Shown here: positions 26,226-64,000 of the stretch, piece after piece
How the letters are laid out: every line of letters begins with the position of its first letter
Position numbering within the stretch: position 1 is the stretch's first letter
Assembly (NCBI GenBank): GCA_036785375.1
Contig: JAWMAR010000201.1
Coordinates: forward strand, 186,001-250,000
From: Leucoraja ocellata
Lineage: Eukaryota
Direction: 5' to 3'
Length of the DNA stretch: 64,000 nt
The notes under the pieces: generated by a model
The model's database searches: none
The model's input: the letters and a program-made list of their open reading frames with translations, nothing else
What the model was told of the DNA's origin: nothing
Position numbers and translations under genes: made by a program

Positions 26226-26239
26226 CTGTATGATACTGT

Positions 26240-27047: not shown

Positions 27048-27619
27048 CTGTCAACTTTCCTGGGACCTCAAGCAGTGGATCACTGGTCGCCCCTGGAAAG
27101 TCCCCGCACTGTGAGACAGGAGACATCCATCCTACACCCCAGCCCGTGATCCACTGATCTGTCTGAGGCAGCAGTCATACAGCACAGAAGACCCTTCGAC
27201 ACACCATGCACATGCTGACTATCAATTTACTACACATGGCTGTCTGTGCCTTGGTCATTCAAGTGCTCCATAAGGTGTGAGAGTCTCTGCATCCACCACC
27301 CTCTCATGCGGTATGGTCCAGTCTCCAACCACCCTCTGGGTGAAACAGTGTTTTCCTCAGATTGCTCTTATTCCTAACCTTATGTTCTCTCAGTGTGGAC
27401 ACATCTATTGTAGGGATAGGGAACAAACTGATGAATCTCTGCACTCTCACCAGTGCAATCACATCCCTCCTTTAGTGTGGTGCCCAGAACTATACATAAT
27501 ACTCCCGCTGTGGTCTAATCAAGATTTTATAAAGTTGTACCATAACCTCTCTGTTCTGTATTAAATGTCCCAGCTAATGAACCCCACACACAGGATGGTG
27601 TGTTGCCTCCCTGGTGCCT

Positions 27620-28205: not shown

Positions 28206-29559
28206 TAGGTGCTGCAATCAGCACTGACCAAATATGAGCATGGCTCAGAGGCGAAGATACAGAGTGCAGAATATAGTTCCCAGCATTGTGGCATGTCAGT
28301 TTCTGACCTTTCCTTTGATCTAATCTATTTAATCTTATTAACCACACCTGTCGTACTTCTATTTGTGTTCCGGTGTGGAAATCTTTCTAACTACTGGCTC
28401 GGTCTAGTTAAAGGGTGTTTTTGAAAGTAGTTTCTCAGTCAACCAGAGCCATCGCAGTGTCTGTGCTTTCATAGTTTGCTTTATACAGATATATTAACAC
28501 TTAGGGGGGGGATCTAGGTGGGGCTGGGAGGCGGGGGATGTCCGTTGTTACAGACAAACTGGCAATTTCATCACAGAACAAACATAATTGTAAATGTTTG
28601 CAACACCCATTGCTTCCAGGAACAGTCCATTGTTTCTTGGGATCATCGGTCTGGCACAGGATCAGAACAGAGCCTGGCATGGCATTCTTCGTCTCCCAGT
28701 CTCACCTGCTCAACTCGCAGACACAACACCTCCTTGTTTCATTCATCCCTTCCCATATTTTCCATCCCCTCCCTAGGTTTTTACATTTTCAATCTCTTAC
28801 CCTGCCGGAGATGTGATTGTTTTCAAGGTCGTATCTCCGGTTGCTCTGTGGCCTAACATCGTTGAGCTGGAGGCCTCACTCGGGACTGACTTTGAGCCCC
28901 ACCGTTGGACATGGACCTACCATCGGAGCCGAACCCCTGCCTTGGAATGTTCCTGCCTTAGCCTGCAGACTTTACCATCGAGAGCTCGCAGTCTCGGGTA
29001 GTGACCGTAGATGTCGGGAGCTCCATCGACACAGAAAGTTCTACAAGCCCAGACTGGGGTCAGATCTCTCGGCGCGGGAAGCTGAGATTACCACCGATGC
29101 AGGAGCTTGGTCACCCCGACGCGGAGGGCCCCATGCCGGATATGGGAGTATGATCGCCCCGTCAATGGAAGGCTCGAGGCCCCCGACCGCGGGAGAACAA
29201 AGAACGGAAGAGATTTAACTTTTTTTTCACCTTCCATCATGGTGAGGAATGTGGAGGAGTGTGGTGGATGTTTATGTTAAAGTGTATTTTGTGTGTTCTG
29301 TTGCTTTTTATTTGCATGACTGACTTGGCAAATGAAATTCCTCATATGTTGCAAAACATACTTGGCTAATAAAGCATTATTGTATAGTGTTGTATTATTG
29401 CAACAAGTGCCCAAGAGTGAATGATGATCGGCATGGACTGGGAGGGCTGAAGGGCCTGTTCCAAGCTGTATCTCTAACCTAAATTAAAATATAGTTTCTC
29501 CTGTCTCAGTCATGATGGTTCCATATCAACATTAGCCAATCATTGCCACTCTACAGATC

Positions 29560-35848: not shown

Positions 35849-35898
35849 TCATTCAGTCTTGTGAGGCCTGTCTGCAGTTCCACTGACAGGGCGGGCGC
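35849..35898 (-). CDS. Gene B exon 5, tail [16 protein letters not shown]
   Basis: Same acceptor and stop as gene A. Candidate minus-strand AATAAA at 34972-34967. Confidence 0.75.
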
Positions 35899-41800: not shown

Positions 41801-44800
41801 CAATTAAACCACAACATTCTTCAAACCTGATTCGCCCTCTGACACTCACCAGATGTGGTCTGTTTGCAGATGTTCTTCAGCCGGATCTGTGCCGTGCCTT
41901 CACTGACCTGGTTCCTGGCCTCACACCTGTACACAACGTCCCCGACCTCTGCTGTGTGATGAACCTGTATTGTCTTTCCATGTCCCTCGAGGTGATGGGT
42001 GATGTTGTTTCCCGAAGCCTCCTTCCACCACGTGAAGTTGATGGGGCCACCAGAGGTCACGAAGCAGGTCAGGGTGAAGTTGCAGATCTCAGTGATGTTC
42101 TCAGCCTTGATCTGTGTTCCTGACACGGGCTCTGAGGTTGGGGCAGAGAGAAGAAAGATGAGTAAAGGAGATCCTTGTGGACCCCTCGATACCCCATAAC
42201 CCGTCTCCAACAGCCACGACCCACGAATGAGCCGATCACAGCTCATTTCCACCCACCAGTTTAACTCTTCCCTTCCCATTCAGTTCAGCCAGTTGTTGCT
42301 GGAGGAAGTCCACACGTGTGATGTGCCCCCTTCCCGAACACTCCCCGCACCCATCCACAAACTCTCCACTGTGTCCTGTTTATGGCTCTGTTCCCTGGGA
42401 ATCTCTCCAGTTCCATATCTTTTGTCACTTGTGAGTGGTCCCAGTGTTCCTTAAAAACTCGAGTGTGACCCAACTCAGACCGGCCCAGAACCTGGCCAAC
42501 AGTGGCAGCCCTGGGACTGTGATGGACACAGACCCAGACTGGGTAGCGTGCTGTGTTCCAGAGTGAATCCAGCACGTGCAGATCCTGGGCCACCTATTGT
42601 AGTAGGATCTTGATTAGTTGGGCAGGTGAGCTGACGAATGGTTAATGGAGTTCAGGTTTGGTCACCCTGCTACAGGAAGGATGTTGTTCGGCTGGAAAGA
42701 GTGCAGGGAAGATTTACAAGAATATGACCAGGACGTGAGGGCCAACGGTATAGGGAGAGTTTGGGCAGGCTAGGACTTTATTCATTGGAGCAGGAATATG
42801 ATCTGTATAATATACATCTTATAGAAGTTTAGTTTAGAGATACAGTGTAGAAACAGGCCCTTCAGCCCACCGAGTCCACACCGACCATCATGCACCTCCG
42901 ATTTCTCAATTCTCTCCCTATTTAGAAATTAGTCTACGCCTTTATTCCTACTACCAATATACTTGATTCCACACTTTGCTACACTATATTCCATCTGCCA
43001 CTTGTCTGCCCACAATCCTAAGTCCTTCTGCAGACTTCTTGTTTTCTTTGCACTACCTGCCCTTCCACCTATTTTCGTATCATCCGCAAACTTGGCCACA
43101 AAGCCTTCAATCCTCTCATCCAAATCATAAATATATATACAACTAGAAGAGTAGCGGCCTCAGCACCAACCCCTGTGGAACTCCACTAGTCACTGGCAGC
43201 CAACTAGAAAAAGCCCCCTTTTTTGCCGCTCTTTGTCTTCTGCCATCCAGCCAGCCTGCTATCCATGCACGTATCTGCCCTTTGATACTGTGGGCTCTCA
43301 TCTTTCTTATCAGCCTCACATGTGGCACCTTATCAAAGGCTTTCTGAACATCTAGGTAAACAACATGTACTGACTCTCCTTTGTCTGTCCTGCTATTTAT
43401 TTCTTCAAAGAATTCCAGCAAATCTGTCAAGCAAGACCTCCCCTTCACAAAGCCATGCTGACTTCGGCTTATTTTATCATGAACTAAGTACTCTGAACCT
43501 CATCATTTATAATAGACACTAAAATCTTACCAACCACCGGTCAGACTAACCAGCCTATAGATTCCACTATTCTGCTTTGCTCCCTTCTTGTGCAGCGGGG
43601 CATTTTTCCAATCATCTGGGACCTCTCCTGTCTCGAGTGATTCTTGAAATCTCACTGCCAATGCCTCCACAATCTCTAAAGCCACCTCTTTCGGAAGCCT
43701 ACGATACAGTCCATCTGGTCCAGACGATTTAACCACCTTCAGCCCTTTCAGCTTCCCAAGCACCTTCTCCCTACTAATAACCACTCCACTAACTTCTACC
43801 CCTTGACTTTCTTGATTTCAGGCACGTTGCTGGTGTCTTCCACTGTGAAGACTGATGCAAAAAGTTATTCAACTTCTCTGCCATTTCTTTATTCCCCATT
43901 ATCACTTCTCCTGCATCATTCTCCAGTGACCCAACTTCCACTCTTGCCTCTTTCTTACTCTTTATATAACTGAAGAAACTTTTGCTCTCCTCTTTTATAT
44001 AATTGGCTAGCTTATCTTTGTATTTCATCTTTTCTCCCCATATTGCCTTTTTAGTTCTTCTGTTGTTCTTTAAAAGCTTCCCAATCCCCCCACTAATATT
44101 TGCTATGTTATATCCCTCCTCTCTTAGTTTTATACTGTCCTTGATTTCCCTTGTCAGCCACAGTCACCTCTTTCACCCCCCAAGAACCTTTCTTCCTCTT
44201 TGGAATGAAAAGATCCCACATCTTCCGGATTATGCCCAGAAATTCCTGCCATTGGTGTTCCACTGTCACCCCTGCTAGGGTTTCTTTCCAGTGAACTTTG
44301 GCCAGCCCCTTCCTCATGCCTCTGTAGTCCCCGTTACTCAGCTGCAATACTGACACATCTGATTCTCCCTCTCAAATTGCAAATTGAAACTTATCATGAT
44401 GTGATTGTTACCTCCTAATGATTCCTTTACCTTGCGTTCCCTTATCAAATCCGGTTCATTACATAACACTAAATCCAGAATTGCCTTTTCCCTATTAGGC
44501 TCTAGTACAAGCTGCTCCAAGAATCCATCTCTGAGGAACTCTACAAATTCCAGTACCAACCTGGTTTTTACAGTCTATCTGCATATTGAAATCTCCCATG
44601 ACCACCGTTGCATTGTCTATTTTTGCATGCCAATTTTATCTCTTGATGTAACTTGTACCCTATATCCTGGCTAATGTTTGGGGTCCTGTAAATAACTAAC
44701 TAACAGAGCTACCCCACCCCCTCTGCCCACCTTTCTGTCTTTCCGATAGGACGTACACCCCTGAATACTTGAATGACCAAATGGCCTACCTACTCCTAGA

Positions 44801-47800
44801 AGTTATGAACATGATCAGCTGATGCCAAGTCGTAAAGACATGACAACATGTTCTCCAAAAGATAGAGGGGGGGGGGGGAGGGGGGGGGGAGGGGTTGATA
44901 TCTGATCACACCTCCACTAGAGGGCGCAGGTGGGGAGGAGGAGCTCATCAGGTATGAAGAGCAGGACGTTGTAAAATTATTAACCATCATATATATATGT
45001 TCAGAAGTTCATAAGCGATAGGAGCAGACTTAGGCCATTCGGCCCATTCCGCCATTCAAACATGGCTAATCTATATTTCCCTTTTAACGCCATTCTTCTG
45101 CATTCTCCCCCTAAATCCCGTTGGAACATTGTATGCCCAGTGGCAGGAAAACTTCACCAATCGCGACCTCCTCATTCGGGGCCAGGCACGATCTTCAGGG
45201 GGAACACAGGCTTTCCTGATATCTTGGAGGTCGCGACAATGGCTGAAGGGCCAACAACCCCAGCCATCACACAGTTATCTCTATTTATTCATGTCGGGAT
45301 GTACATACTCTTCAAACCATTCCTACAAGTTAACATCATGAAAGGTGTCGGGGACAGGAGTGGGTAAAATTGCAGTCACATTCGCGTAGCTGAGCCACCG
45401 TAAGCAGCACAGACAAGACATCACTTGCTGGAGAGCAGAGCACATGGGAGATTGATGGCAGTCAGTGGGGTTCAGTAAATTGGGGAATGCACAGGATCTG
45501 CCCCGCCTGTTAATTAGATGGGTTCAGGAGCTGGTGAAACCCGGGACCTTTGTGGCAGTCTCACTCACCGTACACCTCCAGTTGGACTGTTGCCGGAGTT
45601 TCCTTTCCTGAACTTGTTCCAAAAGTCACCTCATATTCACCAGCGTCCTCTCCCCGTAGATCACGGATTTCCAAACTGAAGTTCCTGCGGTGAAGAGTTA
45701 CCCGTCCCGTGTAATTGGTGTTAAAGTAATTCATCTTCCCATTCGAGCATTCCGCTATCTTGAATCTGGGCGATTTCCGCCTCCACGCCACTTCCGTAAT
45801 GTCCGGTGTGACTGTGATCCCAGCAGGTAAGGAGACCGAGTGCCCCCGAGCTCCGGTCACGGTGTCAGCGGCGGCCCCAGTCCCAGCTGAGGAGACAAGA
45901 GAGGCAGTCAGTAGGACAGCTCAGTGACTGGAGGAGGAATCGGAGCTGGGAGAATCACAGAGCACATGAGCAGGCCATGCGGCCCATCGTCTGGCTCCCG
46001 GCTCCGTGAGATACCCAGCCCACAGTCCCTGCATCAGTGAGCCCACGGAGGGAACAGGGTGCAGATTCTGTTGGTGATTGTAAACGGGCTCCTGAAAGCA
46101 CCCTTCACTTTTTTACAGCAAGGAAACAGACCCTTCGGTCCAACGAGTTCATGCCGTCCATCGATCAGTCATTCACACGAGTTCTATACAATCTCACTTG
46201 CTCATCCACTCCCCGAACATTAGGAGCAATTTTACAGAGGCCAATGAACGTACAAATCTGCACACCTTCAGGATGTGGATGGGCAGCGCCCTTCACTTTC
46301 AGACAGGAATACATCAAGGATGCCTACGTCCTACCAGCTGCATTCCCTTTGCCTGGAGCCATTTTTGTATCAGCAGAGGGAAAGGTTGTCATATTTACTT
46401 CTGCATGGGCTGGGCATAGGTGTCATTCTGCCATGTAATGCTATTGATGCGTTCAGGGCCTGATTACGTATAAGCTAGACAAGCTTAAACTTAGGGCCTC
46501 GAGAACTAGGGAGGCCTATTCACCTCACTGCCTCACCGGACCAGTCGAACCTCGCCGCCTCACTGACCATCCGCCCCCCGGAACCTCCTACTCTTTGCCC
46601 GCTGACCCTGGCCACTCCACCGCCCTCCAGCAGCCCGCAGCCGTCGCCTTACCTGCAGCCTGGACTCAGTGCCAGGCCTGAAGTACCACGCTGCAGACTC
46701 CCACTACCCTGGGTTTGACTGCGCTGGATCCTAGTGCTAGTCCCCCCAACCCTGGTAACCTCAGTGGCTGTTCCACTGGGTCTTCCCCATTCCCCTCAAA
46801 CCATGTGATCCCAGCTCTTCCCCACCCACACTGCATTCCTCATACCCCTCTACCCCCTGACCACCCACCACCCACCAGACATCGCCTCGGCCTCAGTCCA
46901 CTCACCTGCCTTCCGGCCCCAACCCCCATCCCTGCCGTGTGTTCACCATCCCCCTGACCTCCCCCTCTCTGATACTGAACGGTCTGTCCTCAGCAGAGGT
47001 CTCACCTTTGTACCCCTCCATCCCCACCTCAATGAGTTCCGCGCCCACCGCGATTTGGAGCATTGGAGCCCCCCATTGACGATCCCTTTTCCCGTCTCCA
47101 ACGGATCTCCTCCTCTTGGACCCTCCTCATCGCGATTGCTAAAATGAAATTTGGGGGTCAACATCCGACGTCAGAACGGGAGACCATTCACAGTGGCTTG
47201 GATTTCGGAATGGGCCACTTCCTACTAGAGACCGAAGTCTACAGGCAGAGCTGGGTGGAGATTTACGCTGGTGGCCCTCGGCAAAGGGTTCCCAGGGCTC
47301 CGTGATATTAAAATCAGTGCAGCCCGAGGCTGGGAGCTCTGCAAACCACAGCTCCATGATGTTGAAGCAGCAGGCCCAACACTCCAGAGCTTCAAACGGC
47401 GATCCAGGTAACGCATCGCTCGCTCTGTGGTGAATCCAATATGTATTTTAAAACTAACTGTTTAATGACAGCATACAGTAGGATCTAAAAGTGTCACTGT
47501 CACTGTCGGGTAGTCATGGTCCTCTAGTCGTGGGGGTGGGGGATTGGGAGGGGACTCACAAGTGAAATAGCTTAGGGCCTCTCTTCATCTAAATCCGGCC
47601 CTGGATGCGTTCCTCCTGTTGCCCTGTGAAATATGTGCTCGCCAGCAGGAATTCTGCTCCATGTATTCTTCAATGCTCAAATGTGATAAATTGAGACAGT
47701 GAGCCCACGATGAAAACAGAATGAAGACTCTGCACCCAGGGCTGAGGAAGGAAGTTACAGCCTGCAGCCCGATATCGATGCATGGGTCACGAGACACAGA

Positions 47801-50412
47801 CACGGCAAATGGGACCCAGTCCGGAGAAGGGTGCACATGGTGAATACAGAGTAAAAGAGAAGGGGTGGGCGGTGTGGGGAGCAGAAGGAACTAGGAGCGG
47901 GCACTTGGTGTGTAAAGATCCATGAAGATCGAGGTACAGTCCAATAGGCAGACGGGCTGCTTTCCTTTAGTCGAGGCTCAGAGACCGTGTAAGAACTGGA
48001 GATGGTGTAACTGTGCCCAACAGTAGTTAGACCCAGCCTGACCCTGCAGACAGTTCTGGGCACCACCACCCAGGAGAGACAGGTCACACTAGAGAAACTG
48101 CAGGGAGATTTACCAGGACGTTGCTGGGACTGGAACTGTCGCTGTGAGGAAAAACTAGAGACTGAGGTTGTTTGCCGTGGAACAGAGGTTGCTGAGGGGG
48201 ACGATCGAGGGGGTATGAAGTGATGAGGGACCTGAACAGAGTAAATGGGATGGTGCATTTCGCATAACAGAAGCGGAGAACAAGGCCAGACATTTACTGG
48301 CACTGGGACGGTTTAGAGGGGGGAGGATGGAAGGTGTGAACCCAGAGTTGTGTTTCCCTATAAGATAGACACAAAATGCTGGAGTAACAGCGGGACAGGC
48401 AGCATCTCTGGTTAGAAGGAATGGATGATGTTTCGGGTCATCTTTATCCGTAATACATTCCATCTGTCATTGTTCTGTCCATTTTAACAGCTCATCAATA
48501 TCATCCTGTAGTCTATAACTGTTGTCCTTTATGTCAACAAAATAGCCAATGTTTGTGTTATCTGTGTCAATAAACTTTATGGGTCACAGCACAGATCTCT
48601 ATGGGACATCGTTGGTTGTAATCTGTCGATCACTGAAGCAACCTTCCACCATCATTCTGCTTCCTATTATCGAGCCAATGTCAACTTGCTCTGGGTCCTG
48701 TGGATCTTTACCTTTTGTCTAGTCTCCAATGTCAAAGATCTTATAGGTATGCAGGTGGATTATATGCCCTAATTAATACATATTGTCACCACTTCCTAAT
48801 AGGTCACAGTGGAATAAAACCAAGCTGACAATCTTTGGCTAATCCTGGCCTTTCAAAGTGATTAATCATGTCTTATTTTCTTCCAATAACTCCCCTACCT
48901 CTGATGTTAGGGTTGTAATTACTGGAGCATCCTCAATGTACTTCACTCCTAAAGTGAAGGTACACCGTCAAGGACAAATACGTATACCTTCACCAGGCAT
49001 CCTGTGGCTATGTACTAAAGACCGAGGAGTCTGGCCACACAATGTCGCCTAAGCCCAATGGCGTGCAGGATTCCAAGAAGTTAGCTGGGATCTATTCTGT
49101 CAAACACCTTCTCCTAGTAGAGGGATGGAAAGGTAATGGGCAGACTTTTGGTTTTGGTTTCGGTTTATTATTGTCATGTGTACCTAGTACAATGAAAAGC
49201 TTTGTTTGATATACAAACTATACAGAAATACAACAAAGCCAAACACAAGTACAATAGGTCGAACAAAGCGACAGAAACAAAGTGCAAAATATATTTCTCA
49301 GCATTGTAGCACACCAGTTCCATATACAAAGTCCAATCACGGCCATGGGGTAGAGGTGAAAGGAGAGTTCCCTAGCTTATGGAAGGGTTCAGAAACTGTA
49401 AGGATCCATTTCAATTCAATTCAATTCAATATTTATTCCATCTCATTTGAACCTCAGTGAGGCTCAAACGAAATTCCGTTTCTACAGCCATACCAACAAA
49501 ACAATTCATACAAGACACACAAACAATTCAATTCACACAAACATCCATCAAGGTCTTTTCTCTCCTGTGCACCATTTTTCTCCTGATGTTGAGGCCCCAG
49601 GCGGGTGATGGTAAGTCCCACGGCCATTTAAGGTCACGCCGGGCGATGTACGGGTCTAAATGAGACTGATGCCAGCTTTCGAAGACAACATAGTGAGCTA
49701 CCAGTTCTGCCCACCTGCCTGTCTTTTCAATAGGGTGTGTATCCTTGGATGTTTAGCTCCCAGCTCTGACCCTCTTTCAACCACATGTCTGTGATGCCCA
49801 CAATGTCATAAATACCAATTTCTAATTATGCTGCTTGCTCATCGATCTTATATATACTGCGTGCATTCAAATAAGACCTTTGGTTCTGTGGTCACCACCC
49901 CTATTCTGACATTGGTCCTCATTTTGCCTGAACATGGACTCTTATCCCTTTATAAACTTTCTGTCCTGTTACTTGTTCTGGACGTCCTCTGAGTAGCCTC
50001 TCTTGGGCCCTCCTGGGCAACTTCATTTATACATTTCAAATTTGTTGAGCCCACTCCCCCAGTTTAGTTTAAAGCCCTCTCTACAGCCCTGTTTAAGCAG
50101 TTCCACAGGATCCTGGTCTCATCATAGTTCACGTGGATTCCATCCCATGGGAACAGCTCCCTCCTTCCCCAATACTGATGCCAGTGAAACCCAATTCTCC
50201 CACCCCAATCTTTCGCACCACGTACCATACCTGCCCATACCTATGACAATAAACCGGGCTTGACTTGCAGAGAAGTTTCGAGTTTCCAGTCTGCAAAACC
50301 AAAAGCAGTCCCCAGAGGGGGAAGTGAACCACAATAAGTAATTCAGAATAAACTCACGGATTGAGACGGAGAGAGACAGCCAGAAGCAGCTGAGCAGGCA
50401 CCTGATATCCAT
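35849..50412 (-). CDS. Gene B: CD2/SLAM-family receptor, paralogue of gene A, 5 exons, 267 aa
   Basis: Exons 50412-50358, 45886-45569, 42131-41850, 38339-38241 and 35898-35849 have the same lengths and phases as gene A, canonical splice sites and an open frame. Confidence 0.88.
36190..36448 (+). pseudogene. SNRNP40: SNRNP40 (U5-40K WD40 protein) pseudogene fragment in gene B intron 4
   Basis: Reads NSYYPAQR..TGSNDETIKL*DIRKKVAIHMFQNTCQVLAATFNDT/SDHIISDGIDDNIKVWDL*QNRLIYTMRGHTDSVTGLTLS, matching SNRNP40 NSCYPARR..TGSDDGTVKLWDIRKKAAIQTFQNTYQVLAVTFNDTSDQIISGGIDNDIKVWDLRQNKLTYTMRGHADSVTGLSLS as recalled. Contains stops and a frameshift. Confidence 0.88.
36990..38130 (-). mobile_element. Penelope-like element fragment (duplicate), gene B intron 4
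   Basis: Near-identical to 2845-3990; [22 protein letters not shown]. Confidence 0.88.
38241..38339 (-). CDS. Gene B exon 4, TM ([33 protein letters not shown])
   Basis: 99-nt exon with canonical splice sites, 2 aa different from gene A. Confidence 0.85.
39100..41770 (+). mobile_element. Tx1-type LINE ORF2 remnant, gene B intron 3
   Basis: GKAPGLDGLTIEF, KNWCPVSLL, SLDQEKAFDRVDH, GVRQGCPMSG, AYADN, CNFCGKNEAVYH. Confidence 0.88.
41850..42131 (-). CDS. Gene B exon 3, IgC2 domain
   Basis: [23 protein letters not shown]...YRCEARNQVS...NICKQTTS; 282 nt. Confidence 0.93.
45569..45886 (-). CDS. Gene B exon 2, IgV domain
   Basis: ...[72 protein letters not shown]...VQLEVY; 318 nt with canonical sites. 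Confidence 0.93.
46450..47130 (+). mobile_element. Penelope 5' ORF fragment, gene B intron 1
   Basis: DLPLSDTERSVLSRGLTFVP..PHLNEFRAHRDLE, a Penelope RT N-terminal motif. Confidence 0.7.
50358..50412 (-). CDS. Gene B exon 1 (signal peptide [18 protein letters not shown])
   Basis: ATG at 50412, 55 nt, GTGAGT donor. Confidence 0.85.
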
Positions 50413-52713: not shown

Positions 52714-54955
52714 CATCATGGACATTGAAGAAGTTATCAACAACATTTGATCCTGCACAGCTGGGTAGGTGGGCTGAAAATGGCAAATGGAATTTAATTC
52801 AGTTAAGTGGAAGGTTTTGCATTTGTAACATCAAGCACTGTAGGACATTCACAGTAAAAAGAAGGGCCCTAGGAGGCACTGTAGAATGAGGAACCTAGTG
52901 GTACAAAGTAGCACCACAGTTTGCGGGGTGGTGAGAGGGCTTTTGGCATGCGGGTCTTCATCATTCTGAGGCATGTCAGCATTAAGAAGGCCTGTTCCTC
53001 TGCTGTACGTGTCTATGACCTGATGACACTATGATATATCTCTGTCCCTCTCTCTCAAGGGAGATAACTTTACTGACTGGAGTATCGCAGTCCCTCTTGC
53101 TCAGAGGGATATCTGTGCACTGACTATTGTATCACAATCCTTCTCTCTCGGGGGAGATATCTGTACACTGACTTGTCTCTCAGTCCTTCTCTAGATCTGG
53201 CCGGCGTCGGTGGTTGCGACAGTGATGATGTTGGTGGTGGTTGCGGTGACGGTGATGGTAGTGGCAGCGGAGTCAGTCATGGCCACTGCAGCGGCAGGCA
53301 TGGCCTGGGAGTGGGTGCAGTGGGAGGAGCGATTGGAGTGGGGACACAGGCCGCGTTGGCATCAGGACTACAGGACAGAAAGCTATAACTGAAATCTGTT
53401 ATAAAGAGGTCTGTAAAAGCGAGTATTAATAACAAATATCTTATTATTAACTGGGATACATACAGTTAAAAATATATTGATGCAAAACAATTCTGAAAGA
53501 AAAATCAGGAAATTAGGGGGTGGAGGTTAGCATTTTTGTAAAAGTGATCACAATTCAATTTGATTTTGTGACAGAAAAGAACAAAACTAAAATTAAAGAT
53601 TCAAAAATGGAGTCAGGACAATTTTACTAATCCAAAATAAGTCAGCAAAAGTGAACCAATAAACGTAGAGTAAATCACTCTCGGGGCAAAGAAAAATGCT
53701 CAAGATGGTGCAGTATTAACATCTTCACTCAGAGAGCAGGGGTGAAGATCTGCCAAGTCTAGGCCAGGTCATTAGGGGATTAAATAGGCACAAGGGATAT
53801 TCCTTATCAGACGAGGAAAATAATATAAAAGAAAGGGGACTATGCTCTTGCGGTCAATATCAGGAACTGCATATAACCTCGCACCAGACTGGACTGAACT
53901 TCTTGAATACATCCCTGATCTGTGAGCTAATTAAATCTCTGTGGGGGAGAGGTTGTATGAACCTGGATCTGCACGATGCCCAAATTCACTGGAACACCAG
54001 ACCGCATTTGGAGTATTGTGAGCAGTTTTGGGCCCCAAATCTGAGGAAGTATGTGCTGGCATTGGAGAGGGTCCAGAGGAGTTTTATGAGAATGATCCCA
54101 GGAATGATTGGATTAGCATATGATGAGCGTTTGATGGACCTGTACTTGCTGGAGTTTAGAAGGGTGAGGGGGGACCTCATTGAAACTTACCGACTCATGA
54201 TAACCCCGGATAGAGAGAATGTGGAGAGATTATATATCCACTCGTGGATGAATATAGGACCAGAGGCCATTGCCTCAGAATAGGACGTACCTTTAGGAAG
54301 GAGATGAGGAGGAATTTCTTTAGTCAGAGGGTGGTGAATCTGTGGAATTAATTCCCCAGAAGGCTGAGGAGGCTGTCAATTGAGATATTTAAGGCACAGA
54401 TTGATAGATTCTTGATTAGTACGGGTGTCATGGAGTTATGGGAAGAATGCAGGACAATGGTTATATCAGTCATGATTGAATGGCAGAGTAGACGATGGGC
54501 CTAAGGGCCTAATTCTGTTCCTATCACTAAAGAACTATGAACTCATGAACACTATCCCAGTCTGGGTCTGTGCCCATCACAGTCCTAGGGCTGCTGCTGT
54601 TGGCAGGTTCAGGGCAGTTCTGGGCTGGGTCACGCTCAGGTGCATAAGGGACGATAGGATGATTAAAGACATGGAATTGGAGAGGATTCCCAGGGTACAG
54701 GTCCACAAGCAGGACACGGTGGAGAGTTTGTGGATGAGTGGGGGGGCAGTGGTCAGGAAGGGGGCGCACGCAGCACACGTGTGGATTTCTTTCAACTGGC
54801 TGAACTGAAGGTGGATGGATGAGTTAAACTGGTGGGTGGAAATGAGCTGCGATCGGCCTAACATTCACTCATCGCTGTTGGAGACGGGTTGTAGGTATCA
54901 AGGGGTCCATAAAGATCTCCTTTACTCATCTTTTTTCTCTCTGCCCCAACCTCAT

Positions 54956-55240
54956 AGCCCATGGCAGGAACACCGACCAGGCCTCAGAACATCGCCGAAA
55001 TTTGCAACTTCACCCTGACCTGCTGCATGACCTCCGGCAACCCCACCAGCATCAGGTGGTGAGGAGAGGAGAAGCTCTGGAAAATGACAGCACCCATCAC
55101 CCCCGTGGACATGGAGTGATGGCAGAGGGTCATCACACAGCAGAGGTCGGGGACATTGCGTACAGGTGCGAGGCCAGGAACCAACACTTGGCCGATGTTG
55201 GTAATTTCCACCTCCAGCTCCAGACAGTCTGTGGCTCGGG
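54956..55240 (+). pseudogene. Inverted IgC2 pseudo-exon of a CD2/SLAM paralogue
   Basis: EPMAGT...NIAEICNFTLTCCMTSGNPTSIRW* / ...ENDSTHH...[18 protein letters not shown]. Acceptor cctcag is mutated to cctcat and there is a 1-nt frameshift. It is preceded by an inverted copy of the intron-2 3' segment (54550-54955). Confidence 0.85.
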
Positions 55241-58200
55241 TTGATTCCCAGGTGGATGAAATAATACAGAAAATACAACTCAGCAGATAGGGCAGCTTCT
55301 GTGGTGAGAGAAATAGTTTTCTGTGTGACTTTTCATCAGGCTTGCATCTCCAGGTGTCCTGAAACCCCTGAGGAACTATCATCAGCCTGTCCATTGGTGG
55401 GGGGTGGGGCAAGCATCTTGAGACCATCCAATTGTTCTGGGCGGCGCACTGCACGTACTCCCACTGAAGTAACCAAGTGGCGAATGAGAACTTAGTGAAA
55501 TCAGTATGAGCAGAGAAATAGTGCTGGGAAGTTATTATGGGATTGCAGACCAGTGAGACTTACAACAATAGTGGGGCAAATGCTAAAATCGATGATAAAA
55601 TGTGCAATGACTGGACACTTGGAAATCATCAATGGGATTGGACAACTCATCACATGTTTAAGCAAAGGAAATAATTTGTAAGAAATCTATTGGAGTTTTG
55701 CGGGTCAAATAGGTAAGAGAGAACCATTAAATGTGGTGTGTTTAGATCTTGAGACCCATAAAAATGTTAGTATGTAAAATTCAAATCCATGGATTGGGTA
55801 ATATACTGGCATAGGTTAAAAACTGCACAATAGGCAGAAAACAGGTGGAATGAATAGTCTTTGACCAGGAGACAGGTGTTGACTAGTGGGTTACGGGTGG
55901 GATCAAAGTTATAGCATTCGTCCAAGATGCCCAATCTAAACCAGTCCCACTTGGCCCAATCCCTCTAAACTGTTCCTATCCATGCACCTGTTCCAATGTC
56001 TATTAATTGTTAGTAGCCATTAGTTTAGTTTAGTTTATTATTCTCATGTGTGCTGAGGTACAGTGAAAAGCTTTTTGTTGCGTGCTATCCAGTCCCAGCC
56101 ACCCATATACCAGGGACAATTTACAGTGACAAACTAATCTACCAACCAGCACATCTTTGTGATGTTAGGATAAACCAGAACCACAAGAGGAAATCCATAT
56201 CAGAATCAGAATCAGAATCAGATATTATTCGCCAAGTATGTTTTGAATCGTATGAGGAATTTCACTGGCCAGTTCAGTCATACAATTAAAAGCAACAGAC
56301 TCAAGAACACATTTTAACATGAACATCCACCACAGTGACTCCTACACATTCCTCACTGTGATGGAAGTCAAAATAAAGTTCAAGTCCCTCCCTTTTGTCC
56401 TTCCTCAGTCGTGGGCCTCGAGCCCTCCATTGACGGGATGATCTTGACTCCCGGGCCCTCTGTATCGAGGCGTTCAGCGCCCGCATCAGAAAAAAGCTCT
56501 GTGCAATTCTCCAGCCCAGGTCGCCAATCCTCCACTTGGGAACCCATTCTCTCTATTGGATGGCAGAACAGACCACCATAACATATCCAAATGGCAGATG
56601 AGGGCAAGGAAATAGAGCATGCAGGAGCAACCTGTACAGGGAACAGTACTTCTCAGAAACAATTCATATTGTGTGGGTCTGACTCCTGAGAAAGGATCCA
56701 GGAGTTGGATACAATGTGCTAATAGACATTAGACGATAGACAATAGACAATAGGTGCAGGAATAGGCCATTCAGCCCTTCGAGCCAGCACCGCCATTCAA
56801 TGTGATCATGGCTGATCATCGCCAATCAGTACCCCGTTCCTGCCTTCTACCCATATCCCCTGACTTCGCTATTTTTAAGAGCCCTATCTAGCTCTCTCTT
56901 GAAAGCATCCAGAGAACCTGCCTCCACCACATAGAGACAGAGAATTCCACAGACTAATCTGGCCAAGCAGGGATCAGCGCAGTCAGCATTGCTCCACATC
57001 TGTTAGGTCCCTGGATGTTCTTTGTGACAGAATGTCTAGAGACTTTAGCTAAGAGTTCCAAGTGCTTACTCTGCCACTGTCCTGTCTGTCTCTTCATCTG
57101 GCAACTCTCACAGCTGAAGTGCCTTCTCCTGCTGGTGCAAGAATGCTCTGGCTGAAGGCAACAATTTTCCAAACTCTTAATAGGTAAGAAGAACCAAGCA
57201 AGTCCACAGGGTGACTTGGCTGCTGCTCACCACTGGGATCTACAGTCCTCCTGAAGACAGTATTCCTGGCCGATCATATGTGTTAACAGCACCCACCATC
57301 TGGGAGGATGCGCAAAGTGAAGGTACTTCTGCAGGTGCAAAGAGCTAGAGTCACCACGTGGGTACAGTCACACACCACTGACTAACTTCTAAAGAGGAGA
57401 CTCAGAGCCGCAGCAGAGAAACAGTCTTTCCTGTTGACCCTGAAGAAATCCACCAACTTCCTCTCGTTCTTGGCAGCAAAGCCAAAAGTCAGGGTTAAAA
57501 TGACCAATCGGCACCACAACATGAAGGTCACCAACTGGTGTATGTCTGGGTAGGTAGATAATTAGAGTAGCCTGGATCTGCATGCTAGCCAGGCAATGAC
57601 TTTCATCTACAAGCCCTACCAGTTCACTGGCCAGATTTTTTCATTGGGCCTCAGATAGATTAGGGAAAAGGGGTGCACGGTGCTCAAACAATAGGTTTTA
57701 TCTCCTCCAGCATGTCACTGATCTACCAAGAGTCTGGAATCCTGGGTTAGACCATACTGGGTTAGACTACATTGGAAGCAACAGGCACATTTCTGTTCAT
57801 TGGATCACACAGCACAGAAACAGGCCACTCCACCCACTATGTCCATTCTTGTCATGGGTAGCTATCTATACTAATCCCAACGACCTGGACTTAGTTATCG
57901 TCTATCGAAGTCTTGACGATCCCATCTAAATCTCTTACCCCTATCTTCTCCACAGGCAACGTTTCCCACTACCTACCAGATATGTCTCATAATTTTGAAA
58001 GCTTTGCACTTATCCTCCACTATTCCAAGGATAATCTAGCCTATCCAATCTCTCACTGTTGCGTTTTACCAAGAGCTCCCCTCTCCCCATCGCCAATGCA
58101 GAACCTTCTGTCCTTAGAAGAGGCCTGATCTTATTCCCCCACATCCACATCTCAGTCTGAGGAAGGGTCCCGACCCGAAATGTTACTCAACCTTTTTTCT

Positions 58201-58334
58201 CCGGAGATGCTGCCTGACCTGCTGAGTTACTCCAACACTCTACCACGGGAAGGTACGGGATCTGCCCCACCCATTAATTAACACTGTTTCAGGAGCCAGT
58301 GAAACTCGGACCCCTCCACAACAGTCTCACTCAC

Positions 58335-58655
58335 CGTACACCTCCAGTCGGATTCTTGACAGAATTTCAGTTCCTGAACGTGTAATAACTGTCACCTCAT
58401 AATCACCAGCATCCTCTCTCCGTAGATCACGGATTTCCAGACTTAAACTCTTGGGATGAAAAGTGATCCGTCGCCCGTACTCCTCAATTCCGAAGTATGA
58501 AATATTCCCCTTTGAGAATTCTATTATTTTGCTTCTGAGCGATGTTTTCCTCCACTCAATCTTGCCAATGTCCAGTCCACCTGCAATCTCAGGAGATAAG
58601 GAGATCGAGTGCCCCAGTGCTCCGTTCACAGTGGGAGGGAGAGCCTCCGGCCCAG
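58335..58655 (-). CDS. Gene C exon 2, divergent CD2/SLAM IgV domain (no own downstream same-strand IgC2/TM exon)
   Basis: GPEALPPTVNGALGHSISLSPE...IEWRK...[38 protein letters not shown]...IRLEVY; 321 nt, open frame, tttccttag acceptor, gtgagt donor. Confidence 0.88.
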
Positions 58656-59499
58656 CTAAGGAAACAAGAGAGGCAGTCAGCAGAAGAGGAGGAGGAGCTA
58701 GGAGAGTCAATGAGCACAGGAGCAGGCCATGCGGCCCGGCGCCTGGCTCCCGGCTCTGTGAGAGACCGGCCCACGGTTCTTATGTCACACAATGAGCCAA
58801 AGGGAGGAATAGAGTGAAGACTCTCTCCACTCTGGCCTGAGGAAGGAAGTTACAGCCTACAGCCAGATACCCATGGATGGGACTCAGTTCGGAAAATAGT
58901 CGTTGCATTGGGGGAGTTGAACATTACGAGAAAACGTGGTAAATGGAAAGATATGGGTGGTATGAAGCTTGTCCACTAATAATATCTCATGACCTTTCTT
59001 ACTCACCCCTCCGCCACTTCACTGATTTCTATTTTAAATATCCTCTATATTTGCTATACGTCTGAAGCCCTCACCTGCTTTCAATTATCTGTAGCTGTCA
59101 CTTGACTTTCTTTATCCAGCCTTTGATATTTTTTGACATCCAGAGTTCATTGCCTTTCACCCAATGGGAACAAGTTAGACCTGAACTCTCATTATTTCAC
59201 TTTTGAATGATTCTCACTTGTGACACCACACAAGTTGCTCCCAGTGTAGTTTTGCCAGATCCAATCTCATGATATTGAAATCACTTCCCCCAATCTGTAT
59301 TCCTTACCATAACCATCAAAAAAGTCTGTAAGACTTTTGGTGACTGTTAAAGCTCCCCTGGGCTCACTTTAAAAGCTACCCACCTCTTTGCCTTTCACAC
59401 CAATAAGATCCCAACAATGCTGGAGAAGATGAAATCCCATCTGACAAGGAGGCCTATGGCAACTGGGATCAAGCAAATCCCTGAGATGTATTAGAGTAC

Positions 59500-62300
59500 A
59501 CTGAAGTGGGAAATCAAGGGGCAAAAAGAGGACATGAGGAAGCTCTGGCAGACAATAATGGAAATGGCTAAGAGATTCTGGAGCTATATTAAGAGTACAA
59601 AGGCAACAAGTGAGAGAATATACCTCCATAGAGGTCAACATGGTCGTCTATGTGTCGAGTCACTAATGAATACTTCTCAGTTTTGTTTCCATGGAGAAGG
59701 ACGGATGCAATGGACTTAAGGGAAGTGAGTCGTGATATGTTGGACAACATCTAAATTACAAAAGAGGAGGTACTAGCTTCTTAAAGGTATTAAGTTAGAT
59801 AAGTCCCCATGGCCTGACTAAGTGTATTCTTTGACATTGTAAGAAGTTAGGGTAGAATTTGCAAGACCCCTGATCCTGTTCAGCCAGTTACCAGAAGACT
59901 GGAGGGTGGCTAATGTTGTAGAAAGGCTGCAAGGACAGGGAACTACAGGCCAGTGAGCCTGACATCAGTAGTGGGTAAGTTATTAGAGAGGATTCCAAGT
60001 GATCTACTTGCATTTGAATAGAGAAGGATTGAAAAGGGTCACCCTGGCTGTGTGTGGGGGAAATCACATCTCTCAAATATTGTTTTAAGAGGTCACCAAA
60101 ATGAGGACAGGGCAGTGGCCGTTGTCTGAATGGACTTTAACAAGGCCTTTCACATGGCCTTGTATAGTAGGTAAGTCCGGAAGTTTAGTTCACATGGAAG
60201 CCAAGGTCAGCTAACCAAATGAATTTCTAGTTGTTATGCAAAAAGGATTTAGCTGGTGGTAGCAAAGAGCTGTTTTTCAGATTGGAGGTTTGTGACCAGC
60301 TGTGTACCCACAGGAATTAAGGCTGGGTCCACTCATGTCATAATCATACAGCATGAAAACAGGCCCTTTCGGTCAAACTCGTCAATGCTGACCATGATGT
60401 GTCATCCAATCTAGTCCCATTTGCCCGTGACTTGCCATTACCCCACTAAACATTTCCTATCCACATACATATCCAAATGTATTTTCAATATTGTTATTGT
60501 ACTTCCCTCAACTACTTCATCGGGCAGCTTGTTTTATTTATCCACCACCTTGTGTGAAAATAATTGCCCCTCAGGTTCCTATTAAATCTTTCCTCTATCA
60601 CATTAAACCTACACCCTACATCTTTGCTATAGCAGGGTGATCAAATCTGAACACAATATTCCAAGTGGAGCCTCACAAAGATTGTGTACAGCTGTAACAT
60701 AACCCCCAATGTTTATGTGTAATTTTCTGTGATTACCTCTTCTCCCCACATCCATCTGGCAGTTGATTTATAAATGTTGAAAGCATGTACAGGGTACTAC
60801 CGGACTCAGGTAGTACCCTGTACAGCTTCTTCCCCTCTGTGATCCAACATTGGAATAATTCTCTCATAAACTAGGGTGTAGTCCCATGCCTCCAGTTTAT
60901 CTTATTGTGGACATTGGACATTTTCTCTGAAACTGTAATGCTATAAAGCTAAAAACTATATTCAGCCCACTAACATTTTCCTCTTTGCTGTCCTTGGGTA
61001 TTGTTTGATTATATACAAGTACAGTATTATTTAATTTAACCGGATAGCATGCAAACAAAAGCTTTTTACTGCATCTCGGTACACATGAAGGCCAGTGTAC
61101 CAGAAGCATTCTTTACCAGCCTATCTACCTGCAACATCACTATTTTCTGTAGCCCATATTAATGAATTGGATGTAGTTAATGTGGTTTATAAATTTGCAA
61201 ATAATAGCAAAATTGAATGTATACTGGCTATGAGAAATGATATCTAAATTTACAAAAGGATCTTGATTAACTATGGAATTGCACCAGGGAATGGCAGATG
61301 GAATTTAACTTGGACAATTGTAGGTGATGCGTTTTGTTAAGTCCAACTTGTGGCAGGAATTACACAGGAAGTGTGGAGCCCTGGAGTTTGTTGAAGAGCA
61401 GACAGAACTTGGAATACATGTTCGCAGTTCCCTTGAAAATGACAACACAGGTAGACAGACAGGTATCGGGGCATCATATTACAGCTGTCAATACCACTTT
61501 TGGAGTACTATGTTCAGTTCTGGTTGCCCTGTGGTAGGAAGGATGCCATTGAGCTGTGAAGGGTGAAACATAGAAACATAGAAAATAGGAGAAGGAGGAG
61601 GCAATTCGGCCCTTCAAGCCAGCACCACCATTCATTGTGATCATGGCTGATCGTCCCCAATCAATAACCGGTGCCTGCCTTCTCCCCATATGCCTTGATT
61701 CCACCAGCCCCTAGAGCTCTATCTAACTCACTTAAAACCATCCAGTGATTTGGCCTCCACTGCCCTCTGTGGCAGGGAATTCCACAAATTCACAACTCTC
61801 TGGGTGAAAAAGTTTTTTTCTCACCTCAGTCTTAAATGGCCTCCCCTTTAATCTAAGGTGAAAAAAAGATTAATTAGAATGTTATCAGGACATGATGGTT
61901 TGAGTTATGAGAGGCTGGTGAGCTGGGACTTTTTACCCTGGAATATAAGAGATTTGCAGGATGGCCTTACAGAAGTATATAAAATCATTAGAGGCATAAA
62001 TTAGGTGAATGGTCACAGTTTTTTCCTTAGAGGATAGAGGAGTCGAGAACAGGAGGCATGGGTTTAAGATGAGAAGAGAAAGATTTAGAACACCTGTCGA
62101 GCAATGTTTTCTTGTAGAGAGTGGTGTATGTGTGGTACAAGCTGCCAGAAGAAGCTGCAGAGGAAGGTATAATGGAGACTATTAAAAAAAACATTTAGAC
62201 AAGTACATAGATAGGAACGGTTTACAGGGACATGGGCCAATCCAGCCAAATGGGACTAGATCAGTTTTAATGAACTAAAGCATGACCAGCATGGACAAGT
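59500..62300 (+). mobile_element. Highly decayed CR1 LINE with nested SINE/HER1 pieces, gene C intron 1
   Basis: Remnants of NYRPVSLTSVVGK, DFNKAF and KFA plus CR1 3' sequence; reverse HER1-type tail at ~61567-61855. Confidence 0.7.
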
Positions 62301-62832
62301 TGGGCCAAAGGGTCCATTCTGTGTAAGAAAGAACTGCAGATGCTGGTTTAAAATGAAGGGGGACACAAAATGCTGGAGTAACTCAGTGGGTGAGGCAGCA
62401 TCTCTGGAGAGAAGGAATGGGCGACTGGGCCTCAGGTTTCAGAAGAAAAAGGGTCTCAACCCAAAACATCGCCCATTCCTTCTCCCCAGAGATGCTGCCT
62501 CGCCTGCTTAGTTACTCCAACATAATTCTATAATTTGTCTGCATCCGTGCTTCTCTATCTCCTGCTGACTATAGGGATGCCAATTTTAAATCTATGTAGA
62601 AGATCCCCGAAAGGTCTACTAAGAAGAAAAGCCCACTTGGATTCATTCAAAGAGCATTCTATGGTATGCTCCCGCAGTGGACCCCTGAACTAATATTGCA
62701 ATATGTGCTCCTCTTTTAAGTCCTCCTTCCCCATCACGCTTGAAGAGTTTAGTTCCTGTTCTGGAAAAATGAAAGAAATCCGCTCAGAGAGGGGGAAATG
62801 AAATAAAATGACTCGCTCAGAATGAAACTCAC

Positions 62833-62887
62833 GGATTGTGCTGGGGAGAGACAGCCAGAAGCAGATGAGCAGGCACCAAACATCCAT
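62833..62887 (-). CDS. Gene C exon 1 (signal peptide MDVWCLLICFWLSLPSTI)
   Basis: 55-nt homologue of the A and B leader exons with a GTGAGT donor. Confidence 0.8.
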
Positions 62888-64000
62888 CTTTTTCTCAGCA
62901 ACCAGTGTGAAGTGGACACCTGATCTGTCCCGATGGACACCTTTTCTCTTCAGGAAAGATGTCAAACTCCTGGACTCACTCAAGGATGGGATTGGTGCAG
63001 TGGAGCAATGTGAGAGAGGACAGAGGGCGACTTCCCTCAGTCTCAGCGCCCTTCCTATCCCGCTGCTTCTGTGCAACTGAAACAATCGAGAGAGATGGAC
63101 AGGAAGTCAGTGTGGGAGGAGGCGAGTTCACAATAGAAGCCACAAAGGGGTGACAGGACTAGCGATATCAAAACAATGGCCAAGAAAACACACCAACACC
63201 TCTACTTCCTTTGAAGGCTTCGGAAGTTCGGCATGTTCCCAACAAAGCTCACCAACCTCCACTGATGCGCCGTAGGGAGCATTTTATCAGGAGGCATCAC
63301 AGCACAGTTTGGAAACATCTTCATCCAAGATGGCAAGAAATTACAGAGAACCCTCCAGTTTTCCGGCACCTCACCCGTGCCTAACAATGATGCATACATC
63401 TCACCCAGGGCTACTGCAATTTCTTCTCTAGCTTACTAGTGTTCTTGGATCTACCTGATCAGGCCCTGAAGATTTATTTACCATCATACATTTTAACATG
63501 TGAACATGTATATGAAATGTAATATGTCAACAAGTATTAGGTACTGAGGTACCACAGTATTGTACTTAATTCTAACAAAAATAAAAAAATAAAAAATTTA
63601 AAATACATTTTAACATGTCAAGCACCTTCTGTAATTACCAAGACATCCGCATTTTCGAAGTTAATTCGGCTTCATGTCTTTCTCTATTTGTAAGAACGAG
63701 AGGATAAATATTAATTGAGGACCTCATCCATCTCTTCTTCCTCCAAACTTAAATGTCCAGTTTGGTCTTCGGTATTATCTCATTTGTTCCTCTTTTTCAC
63801 AGTGCACATTTGGACCAGTTTCTTGATCTTTGTAATAAAAAGGAACTACAGATGCTGGCTTATACCAAAACACTGGAGTAACTCAGTGGGTCAGGCCTTA
63901 CTCCAAAATTTTGTGTGTATATCTCTTGTTATCCAGAGTTCTCTACTCCTGCCAGCCTCACGCCATCTCCTTCACATCAAGCATCCCCTCCCCTCCCCAT

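Follow-up and report, generated by a model that had tools for sequence, protein, structure and literature searches.

The locus analyzed here raises the question of what an open leader and IgV module, preceded by a putative promoter region and followed by no constant exon of its own, represents: a variable exon that could be swapped onto a neighboring gene, the source of a secreted V domain, or what is left of an ordinary receptor gene. The window (the whole stretch of DNA analyzed, 64,000 nucleotides) is a skate SLAM/CD2-family cluster, near Amblyraja radiata, and we consider the module, gene C, to be probably a relic, what survives of a SLAM/CD2-family receptor gene that was once complete, namely its 5′ half with promoter, leader, and IgV. 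Its features are as follows.

62888..63147, minus strand: gene C 5′ UTR or putative promoter region, homologous to the upstream regions of genes A and B and of Rhinoraja longicauda
62833..62887, minus strand: gene C leader exon, 18 codons and one further nt, donor in phase 1
58335..58655, minus strand: gene C IgV exon (V-C), CD2/SLAM type, without cysteines, open, phase 1-1

The leader runs 55 nt from an ATG at 62887 to the donor TCC/GTGAGT at 62833 and is followed, after an intron of 4.2 kb, by the 321-nt V-C exon, which has a TAG acceptor with 15/17 pyrimidines and the donor ACG/GTGAGT, the same as in genes A and B. Leader and V contain neither stop nor frameshift, and the initial annotation's description of open exons with sound, canonical splice sites is confirmed. 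So is its description of an orphan module, in that tblastn found no C2, TM, or tail belonging to C on the minus strand between V-C and gene B, and a C-type C2 or TM is absent from the whole window. The putative promoter region shares 70-72% DNA identity with the regions upstream of A and B and 43/53 residues with its translated counterpart in R. longicauda model P0017, and the leaders of models P0017 and P0026 match the C leader at 16/18 and 17/18 positions, respectively.

Family identity is clear. V-C matches the Pfam V-set domain (E 2e-7), its sequence matches in the PDB are SLAMF6, CD2, CD84, and CD48, and its predicted fold (pLDDT 89.4) has CD84, NTB-A, CD48, 2B4, and CD2 as top Foldseek matches, with a TM-score of about 0.8; the exon encodes a membrane-distal IgV of CD2/SLAM type in a tandem cluster such as SLAM/CD2 receptors form. 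Gene C is a truncated member of this family, differing from its relatives in keeping leader and V only, while the membrane-proximal IgC2, TM, and tail expected in the same gene are found in the R. longicauda orthologue. An ITSM in the tail is a feature of most SLAM/CD2 members; tyrosine is absent from the tails of A, B, and the C orthologue, and an ITSM-like motif occurs only in the remnant of a further gene, D, considered below. With V-C2-TM and a short ITSM-free tail, the C orthologue resembles SLAMF8 and SLAMF9, described in PMC4718992 as having short tails without ITSMs. There are only three V exons in the 64 kb, and both other genes possess their own C2, TM, and tail.

2082..17976, minus strand: gene A, a complete tandem duplicate of B (leader 17976-17922, V 11423-11106, C2 4974-4693)
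TM 4202-4104 and last exon from 2131, minus strand: 3′ exons of gene A, within 2082..17976
50358..50412, minus strand: gene B leader exon
45569..45886, minus strand: gene B IgV exon, whose acceptor, 12.4 kb from V-C, is the first homologous one downstream
41850..42131, minus strand: gene B IgC2 exon
38241..38339, minus strand: gene B transmembrane exon
35849..35898, minus strand: gene B last coding exon, short tail with no tyrosine motif

Comparison with other skates, for which gene order was read from protein models alone, points to loss from a complete gene. Gene C has lost exons needed for its ancestral product, and we read it as a truncated ordinary gene because three R. longicauda gene C models (XP_078276540.1, XP_078276542.1, XP_078277109.1) have the C leader, V, and a distinctive C2 of their own, two of the three also carrying TM and tail. 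The first of these models is annotated as ‘SLAM family member 5-like’. V-C is identical to its A. radiata and R. longicauda orthologues at 103/106 and 94/106 residues, and the V-C clade was supported at 100/100; trees were built from 33 (C2) and 38 (V) of 104 retrieved proteins, taking all skate and most Pristis rows. Among the representatives retrieved for the A. radiata cluster, 0 of 6 carry C-type C2 markers. The A. radiata locus is nearly identical to this one, and its RefSeq model XP_032898071.1 has the exon order V(C)-V(B)-C2(B). This model looks unsupported because it has no true leader and no TM, which suggests a prediction made without RNA support. Among other species, the models would place the orphan state of C in A. 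radiata only.

That the module looks intact is probably due mainly to the recency of the loss, strong selection probably being gone. Intactness of leader and V is within neutral expectation and not significant (P about 0.07-0.7): in neutral simulation both remained intact with probability 0.59-0.70 at 1% divergence, 0.21-0.32 at 3%, and 0.07-0.15 at 5%, and the pairwise divergence of the duplicated units, 6.6-11.5%, implies at most about 3-6% per lineage, with a probability of about 0.03-0.15 at this upper age bound. The 103/106 identity of V-C shows no selection because a non-coding piece is identical to A. radiata at 21/21 positions. V-C is the slowest-changing V of the cluster (97% to A. 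radiata vs 91% for V-A and 86% for V-B) and is open in two lineages; its changes number 4 derived in the window vs 6 in Rhinoraja, with 2 ambiguous, and give no sign of acceleration after truncation. Set against translated non-coding pieces, it is slightly better conserved (94/106 vs 96/117; Fisher p 0.11, binomial p 0.04). Values of dN/dS among the V exons of the window (A-C 0.92, B-C 1.08, A-B 1.12) are uninformative on V-C because they mostly span the time when C was complete, together with diversification of V domains. The C leader-V also carries a Thr>Pro change present in 0 of 55 other rows (Thr in 46), at a position adjoining the likely signal-cleavage site. The intactness and identity of V-C are compatible with neutrality, and also with selection.

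If the C promoter were still firing, its transcript would have no 3′ end of its own. It would either terminate at some cryptic poly(A) signal or continue across 12.4 kb and be spliced to the V acceptor of B, in which case a minor, conjoined mRNA of the form L(C)-V(C)-V(B)-C2-TM would result. Open frames exist for splicing 58335>45886 (374 aa) and 58335>42131 (268 aa), for read-through (127 aa), and for an exon at 55463 (167 aa). Should C be transcribed, the likeliest product is the read-through V-V-C2 receptor (58335>45886) and not a swapped V. Protein homologue searches, which miss most transcripts, found no spliced V-C product, and among the best 150 of 156 representative matches there was no new V-C-bearing protein by identity.

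An alternative explanation to a relic could be that this read-through has become a nascent fusion in which the C promoter serves as an alternative upstream promoter of B and a V(C)-V(B)-C2-TM receptor of 374 aa is maintained. We regard this as unlikely, and the new membrane-distal binding domain and longer stalk that such a receptor might gain are similarly doubtful. Its frame is open, the acceptor at 45886 is the first homologous one downstream (15/17), a junction of the 58335>45886 type is contained in the A. radiata model, V-C evolves slowly, and tandem-V architectures occur in 21/104 retrieved models, V-V-C2 in 4 of those. This is consistent with conjoined (read-through) genes, for which PMC2953495 describes splicing out of the downstream first exon as typical and parents a median of 10 kb apart: C and B are same-strand neighbors at a similar distance, with compatible sites and frame, and the upstream donor would be joined past the downstream first exon. 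The likeness is imperfect, since here the upstream partner has no 3′ end of its own and the junction is known only from the predicted model XP_032898071.1. Moreover, the defects of that model suggest that it had no RNA support, no spliced evidence emerged from the protein searches, four acceptor-like sites (14-15) and two AATAAA signals lie between V-C and the B leader, and cleavage of the signal peptide may suffer from the Thr>Pro change. A functional V-V-C2 fusion, taken alone, is a minority prospect, and gene C overall is best described as a relic of birth-and-death evolution, for which a nascent gene fusion is a modest possibility.

A secreted single-V decoy, produced either by reading into the intron or through a new terminal exon, has a slim chance of being correct.

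55336..55463, minus strand: candidate terminal exon proposed earlier, weak acceptor, no homologue seen, chance-level

Both frames are open, the V domain alone is predicted to fold well, and an AATAAA lies at 56039, 2.3 kb beyond the read-through stop; precedents are the soluble viral CD48 decoy described in PMC6448830 and KIR3DP1, cited in PMC7516082 as possibly secreted. Against this, no AATAAA or ATTAAA occurs within 1 kb of either stop. The ‘GE*’ ending on which the initial annotation based a secreted read-through product is merely donor consensus, the V exons of A and B reading through to the same residues. The terminal exon that it proposed fares no better: its acceptor has 12/17 pyrimidines vs 14-15 for 9 real acceptors, 10 equal or better sites lie upstream of it, the AATAAA at 56039 precedes it, and in 45887-58334 43 of 438 YAG sites equal or beat it, 14 of those 43 giving an ORF of at least 40 aa. 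In a search for proteins of 58-186 aa, the one match among 6 candidates was an unspliced, leaderless call of the V-C exon, so that this candidate for a short secreted V-C protein was rejected, and all 10 full-length V-only models inspected by eye (10/10) have a hydrophobic TM-like segment.

Even less credence is given to a swappable V, in which L(C)-V(C) would be spliced to the C2 of B (58335>42131) and two promoters would offer alternative V domains to a shared C2-TM-tail. This would restore the ancestral V-C2-TM layout in an open 268-aa frame, and module mixing does appear in batoid models: two Pristis models (P0013, P0019) are identical over their first 122 aa and differ in downstream modules, and Hemitrygon model P0096 skips C2. 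However, the intact V exon of B would have to be skipped, and the sole model of the locus takes the V acceptor and not the C2 acceptor. The phase-1 donor had been taken as allowing C to join B in frame; the 374- and 268-aa frames are indeed open, but phase 1 carries no information because it is universal in A, B, and C, at all 10 donors.

The comparison drawn earlier with variable-first-exon loci is not upheld. Pcdh alpha/gamma, UGT1, GCNT2, and UGT2A resemble gene C in that an upstream promoter and N-terminal domain could splice to shared downstream exons. In PMC1885805, clusters of the Pcdh/UGT1 type are described as tandem arrays in which each variable unit is a single first exon and is joined by splicing to constant exons that are conserved. 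The window has no tandem array of at least two variable units before one constant set within 64 kb; instead there is one two-exon orphan, derived by truncation from a standalone gene of which Rhinoraja has the complete form, and the downstream gene B is complete and keeps its promoter, leader, and V. A 4.2-kb intron splits signal peptide from N-terminal domain, which in those clusters share a single first exon, and the organization is not conserved across species, the R. longicauda C models having their own C2. Variable units in such clusters each have a promoter; upstream of C lies the putative promoter region, with homologous counterparts at A, at B, and in Rhinoraja. It is scarcely probable that V-C is spliced onto the C2-TM-tail of B, replacing or preceding its fast-evolving V, as a selected two-promoter unit, true V replacement included, formed when a recent deletion in rajid skates would have merged two neighboring SLAM genes.

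How C may have lost its 3′ half is suggested by exons on the opposite strand.

54956..55183, plus strand: IgC2 pseudo-exon, broken and 3′-truncated, most likely of gene D (unit-2 copy), not C
54539..54955, plus strand: intron stretch upstream of this C2, partly duplicated at 23355-23542
23355..23542, plus strand: unit-1 copy of the C2-upstream intron, 86.6% to 54608-54789
25286..25413, plus strand: gene D remnant, TM exon with a GC donor, frameshifted against R. longicauda model P0043
25920..26014, plus strand: gene D remnant, cytoplasmic exon with TIYTQV, which we take to be ITSM-like; 71% to P0043 276-308
27047..27157, plus strand: gene D remnant, last coding exon, 67% to P0043 324-359

In the C2-like exon the acceptor CAG has become CAT, the frame is shifted, and a stop falls near 55060; homology runs out at 55183, and a donor is lacking. 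It had been reported as the nearest IgC2 to C, inverted and broken; the strand and the damage stand, but it is probably not an exon of C itself. It matches the ITSM-type P0043 at 53/72 residues vs 44-45/70 for C-type C2, and its diagnostic columns are 9 of D type, 2 of C type, and 1 of neither, C-type markers being missing. Pairing with P0043 on the tree was weak (82/58), and grouping with C-type C2 was not rejected by the AU test (p 0.405); identity and diagnostic columns disfavor the exon as part of gene C. The three plus-strand pieces at 25.3-27.2 kb also match P0043, and the C2 is probably a further part of gene D, a dead gene of ITSM type in convergent orientation. The segment is not a mis-assembly, a possibility raised by the initial annotation, because it is present in both duplicated units, and it has matches in models of two other species; the antisense of 54539..54955, for instance, agrees at 33/40 positions with the N-terminus, an artefact, of R. 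longicauda P0025. That this C2 instead comes from C itself, turned around by a local inversion or mis-assembly so that C would be a normal complete gene, is barely credible: it is the C2 nearest to V-C and the AU test leaves the grouping standing, but the segment is duplicated at 86.6%, a Rhinoraja model has its antisense ahead of a B-type V, the exon shows decay (end branch 0.42), the window assembly contains no N, and the A. radiata model too has no C-type C2 after V-C.

The relic probably arose as follows. An ancestral C of the form L-V-C2-TM-short tail would have faced D, the two converging tail to tail in a unit that ran, from left to right, from a leftward A/B gene through a rightward D to a leftward C; a tandem duplication of this unit would have followed. 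Both 3′ halves were probably lost from the right-hand copy in a single deletion that began inside the C2 exon of D (55183) and reached into the V-C2 intron of C. This most likely represents ordinary birth-and-death debris in a fast-evolving immune-receptor cluster. KIR3DP1, KIR fusion genes, and Xenopus FcR-like genes are similar as members of head-to-tail, transposon-rich IgSF clusters with deletions, fragments, and domain shuffling, and truncation, fusion, gene fragments, and domain shuffling are described for paired-receptor clusters (PMC7516082; PMC2413239). They differ in belonging to another family, and any fusion here would occur by splicing across 12 kb and not at a recombination junction. 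If C-to-B splicing were both real and selected, multi-V receptors, such as the tandem-V models counted above, or variable-exon units could arise from simple deletion, with the before and after states in living species; if selected V replacement were true, a variable-exon/constant-exon immune-receptor locus would have been caught at birth, datable against the intact Rhinoraja state. Batoid SLAM/CD2 clusters seem barely described: a literature search conducted mostly outside subscription journals listed no article on how SLAM genes are built in skates or rays, and the sole related item was PMC10751288, which names slamf in one line on the MHC regions of elasmobranchs.

A last feature lies in the left-hand unit.

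28526..28732, minus strand: isolated end of a 3′ UTR, 80-82% to those of genes A and B

It faces the plus-strand remnants of gene D and may be what remains of the unit-1 copy of a C-type gene.

The window contains no N and carries three related minus-strand modules, A, B and C, as follows.

Genes A and B, minus strand, each complete (267 aa), with leader, V, C2, transmembrane (TM) exon and short tail
Gene C, minus strand, leader and V only
62887-62833, minus strand, leader of gene C, open, with the same donor as in A and B
58655-58335, minus strand, V exon of gene C (V-C), open, with the same donor as in A and B

A domain search identified V-C as a V-set domain, its PDB sequence matches were SLAMF6, CD2, CD84 and CD48, and its predicted structure (pLDDT 89.4) was closest to CD84, NTB-A, CD48 and 2B4. 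The top protein matches came from Amblyraja radiata (XP_032898071.1, 97%) and Rhinoraja longicauda (XP_078276540.1, 89%), and a translated non-coding piece of the window matched an A. radiata model at 21/21 positions. These domain, structure and identity matches point to a skate SLAM/CD2-family cluster in a species very close to A. radiata.

The initial annotation described C as an orphan leader-V module with open exons and good splice sites, and this was borne out: its donors match the A and B donors exactly, and the window has no minus-strand C2 or TM exon between V-C and gene B. On sequence comparison C is a formerly complete gene. Three R. longicauda models have the C leader and V (94/106 identical) together with a C2 that is distinctive and their own; two extend further, to a TM exon and short tail homologous to A/B. 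The V-C clade has tree support of 100/100. Among the six A. radiata representatives retrieved, none has C-type C2 markers. One A. radiata model has the order V(C)-V(B)-C2(B) and contains neither a true leader nor a TM; we infer that it is an unsupported prediction that still indicates an orphan V-C there as well.

We favor, with moderate confidence, the reading that gene C is a young relic whose transcription, if any, is leaky. Homologue and representative protein searches yielded no spliced V-C product, weak evidence since they cover few transcripts, and the sole short V-C match was that exon called without splicing. Between the two tandem duplicated units, non-coding divergence is 0.066 in introns and UTR (6224 sites) and 0.115 in intergenic sequence (2767 sites), with 0.07–0.09 indels per substitution. 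The deletion truncating C should postdate the duplication, and thus at most about 3–6% divergence per lineage has accrued. In neutral simulations, with 4000 runs per setting and an indel ratio of 0.05–0.10, the ATG, the splice dinucleotides, the leader and V all survived with a probability of 0.59–0.70 at 1%, 0.21–0.32 at 3% and 0.07–0.15 at 5%, so the intactness of C is unremarkable. V-C is the slowest V relative to A. radiata (103/106, with V-A at 96/105 and V-B at 90/105), at a level no higher than that of the non-coding piece (21/21). Against Rhinoraja, V-C is slightly more conserved than non-coding pieces (94/106 and 96/117; Fisher p 0.11, binomial p 0.04), which would count for retention, and there was no acceleration (4 window-derived and 6 Rhinoraja-derived changes, 2 ambiguous); the slow rate and the lack of acceleration are both points for retention. 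Next to the likely signal-cleavage site, which we place by the -3/-1 rule, Thr has changed to Pro; the change also occurs in A. radiata and in 0/55 other rows, and is a point against retention. Paralogue dN/dS is near 1 and uninformative on this question.

The frames of four proposed C products are all open (374, 268, 127 and 167 aa). If RNA polymerase continued past V-C, the V of B at 45886 would be the first homologous acceptor, and the default product would therefore be a conjoined V-V-C2-TM mRNA. Such a product agrees with the conjoined-gene pattern, as described in sections of PMC2953495, and with tandem-V layouts in 21/104 batoid models, four of them V-V-C2. That it is functional is unlikely. 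The in-frame joining of the V-C donor to gene B holds as far as the open frames go, but its phase is no evidence because all ten donors of A, B and C are phase 1. Secretion of V-C, also proposed earlier, is very unlikely, being based on generic features: the read-through frame is open, but its "GE*" ending is common to all three V exons and so is uninformative on C. For a secreted form using a terminal exon at 55463, the 167-aa frame is open but the acceptor is weak and at chance level, with 12/17 pyrimidines versus 14–15 in nine real acceptors. It is equalled or bettered by 43/438 YAG sites between V-C and V-B, 14 of these 43 having an ORF of at least 40 aa behind them and 10 lying upstream of 55463. 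Neither AATAAA nor ATTAAA occurs within 1 kb past the read-through stop or the stop of the 55463 exon; the first such hexamer is at 56039, and hexamers of this kind are frequent in introns of A and B. The boldest reading, that deletion gave birth to a two-promoter variable/constant SLAM unit under selection, is very doubtful. A swap joining V-C to the C2 of B in place of V-B would demand skipping of an intact V exon, and is highly improbable.

The nearest IgC2 exon had been described as inverted and broken. It does lie on the opposite strand and does carry lesions; its assignment to C is doubtful, the exon being mostly D-like, that is, like gene D, whose pieces are listed here.

54956-55183, plus strand, C2-like exon with changed acceptor, frameshift and stop; homology breaks off at 55183
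25286-25413, plus strand, TM exon of gene D, frameshifted, matching P0043
25920-26014, plus strand, ITSM-like exon of gene D, matching P0043
27047-27157, plus strand, last exon of gene D, matching P0043
28526-28732, minus strand, isolated 3′ UTR end facing the D pieces, about 80% identical to A/B UTRs

P0043 is R. longicauda XP_078276543.1, from a leader-V-C2-TM gene with IYAQV in its tail. Translated with X at its break, the opposite-strand C2 has 53/72 identity to P0043 versus 44–45/70 to C-type C2, and the 12 columns discriminating the two types are D-like in 9, C-like in 2 and neither in 1. Against this, pairing with P0043 in the tree had support of only 82/58, and by the AU test (p 0.405) placement with the C-type C2 was not rejected. 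The exon probably belongs to D and not to C. The intron preceding it has a duplicate (86.6%) at 23355-23542, at the end of a collinear block lying upstream of both A and B, and a Rhinoraja B-type model has its antisense (33/40) as an artefactual N-terminus, so the orientation is old and real. Mis-assembly, which the initial annotation had allowed for, is rejected on the same two matches, and with the intron duplicated in both units an inverted or mis-assembled C2 of C's own is the most improbable reading. Gene D, which the initial annotation did not mention, is a dead ITSM-type SLAM gene divided between the units: the TM and cytoplasmic exons lie in 23355-27157 (plus strand) and the C2 in 54539-55183 (plus strand). 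Neither a leader nor a V of D was found in the window. In the simplest history an ancestral unit, <-A/B, D->, <-C, would have been duplicated with each copy decaying differently, and where D and C converge in the right-hand copy, a single deletion would have taken the 3′ half of each.

The C locus adds a truncated gene to the known SLAM/CD2 family, of which C is a truncated member by the consensus structure given in part of PMC4718992. Protocadherin/UGT1-type clusters, as outlined in portions of PMC1885805, are arrays in which single variable first exons precede a conserved set of constant exons; these defining features were tested and are lacking at C, and the architecture proposed on that model is not supported. 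With KIR and FcR-like clusters the likeness lies in truncated genes and domain shuffling, as covered in excerpts of PMC7516082 and PMC2413239. Among the papers listed in literature searches, none dealt with the structure of SLAM genes in skates or rays; the one related item, PMC10751288, briefly mentions slamf in elasmobranch MHC regions. Overall, the observation on C is confirmed and its earlier interpretation partly supported.

P0039, a spliced-looking 333-aa skate protein from Logan, has V and C2 domains 91% identical to those of gene B (45569-45886, 41850-42131), a D-type leader and a tyrosine-bearing tail, which suggests an exchange of V-C2 cassettes between signalling genes and short-tailed ones, like that in paired receptors. 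V-A (11106-11423) and V-B (45569-45886) differ at 28/105 residues with dN/dS 1.12; the TM exons of A and B give 0.36, and their introns are about 6% different. The V divergence is consistent with diversifying selection or conversion. Two Pristis pectinata models, P0013 and P0019, are identical over the first 122 aa (leader and V) and differ downstream, one having a second V and C2 and the other a different C2 and TM, possibly from module mixing through splicing within one locus.

Several repeats and mobile elements were also present in the window. Among them are the 3′ ends of one repeat:

400-1040, 9640-10270, 16611-17242, 18953-19310, 32457-33016 and 52061-52714, six young copies, 90–97% identical

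We take these to derive from a CR1/L2-like element, and they are likely substrates for the rearrangements described above. By eye, a 550-aa ORF at 30343-31995 (plus strand) was labelled a non-LTR retrotransposon reverse transcriptase, an ORF just upstream (29516-30407) endonuclease-like, and 13658-14032 (plus strand), in intron 1 of gene A, a Tc1/mariner-like transposase fragment. An extra 250-nt copy (95%) of the intron upstream of the C2 of B lies at 40731-40980 (minus strand), within a retroelement insertion in the C2-TM intron of B. Self-complementary stretches at 24712-25014 and 38979-39075 are long inverted repeats, possibly MITE-like. A non-coding repeat piece at 26572-26706 (minus strand) was taken up as a spurious first exon when the orthologue of gene A was modelled in A. 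radiata, so the arrangement there is the same.
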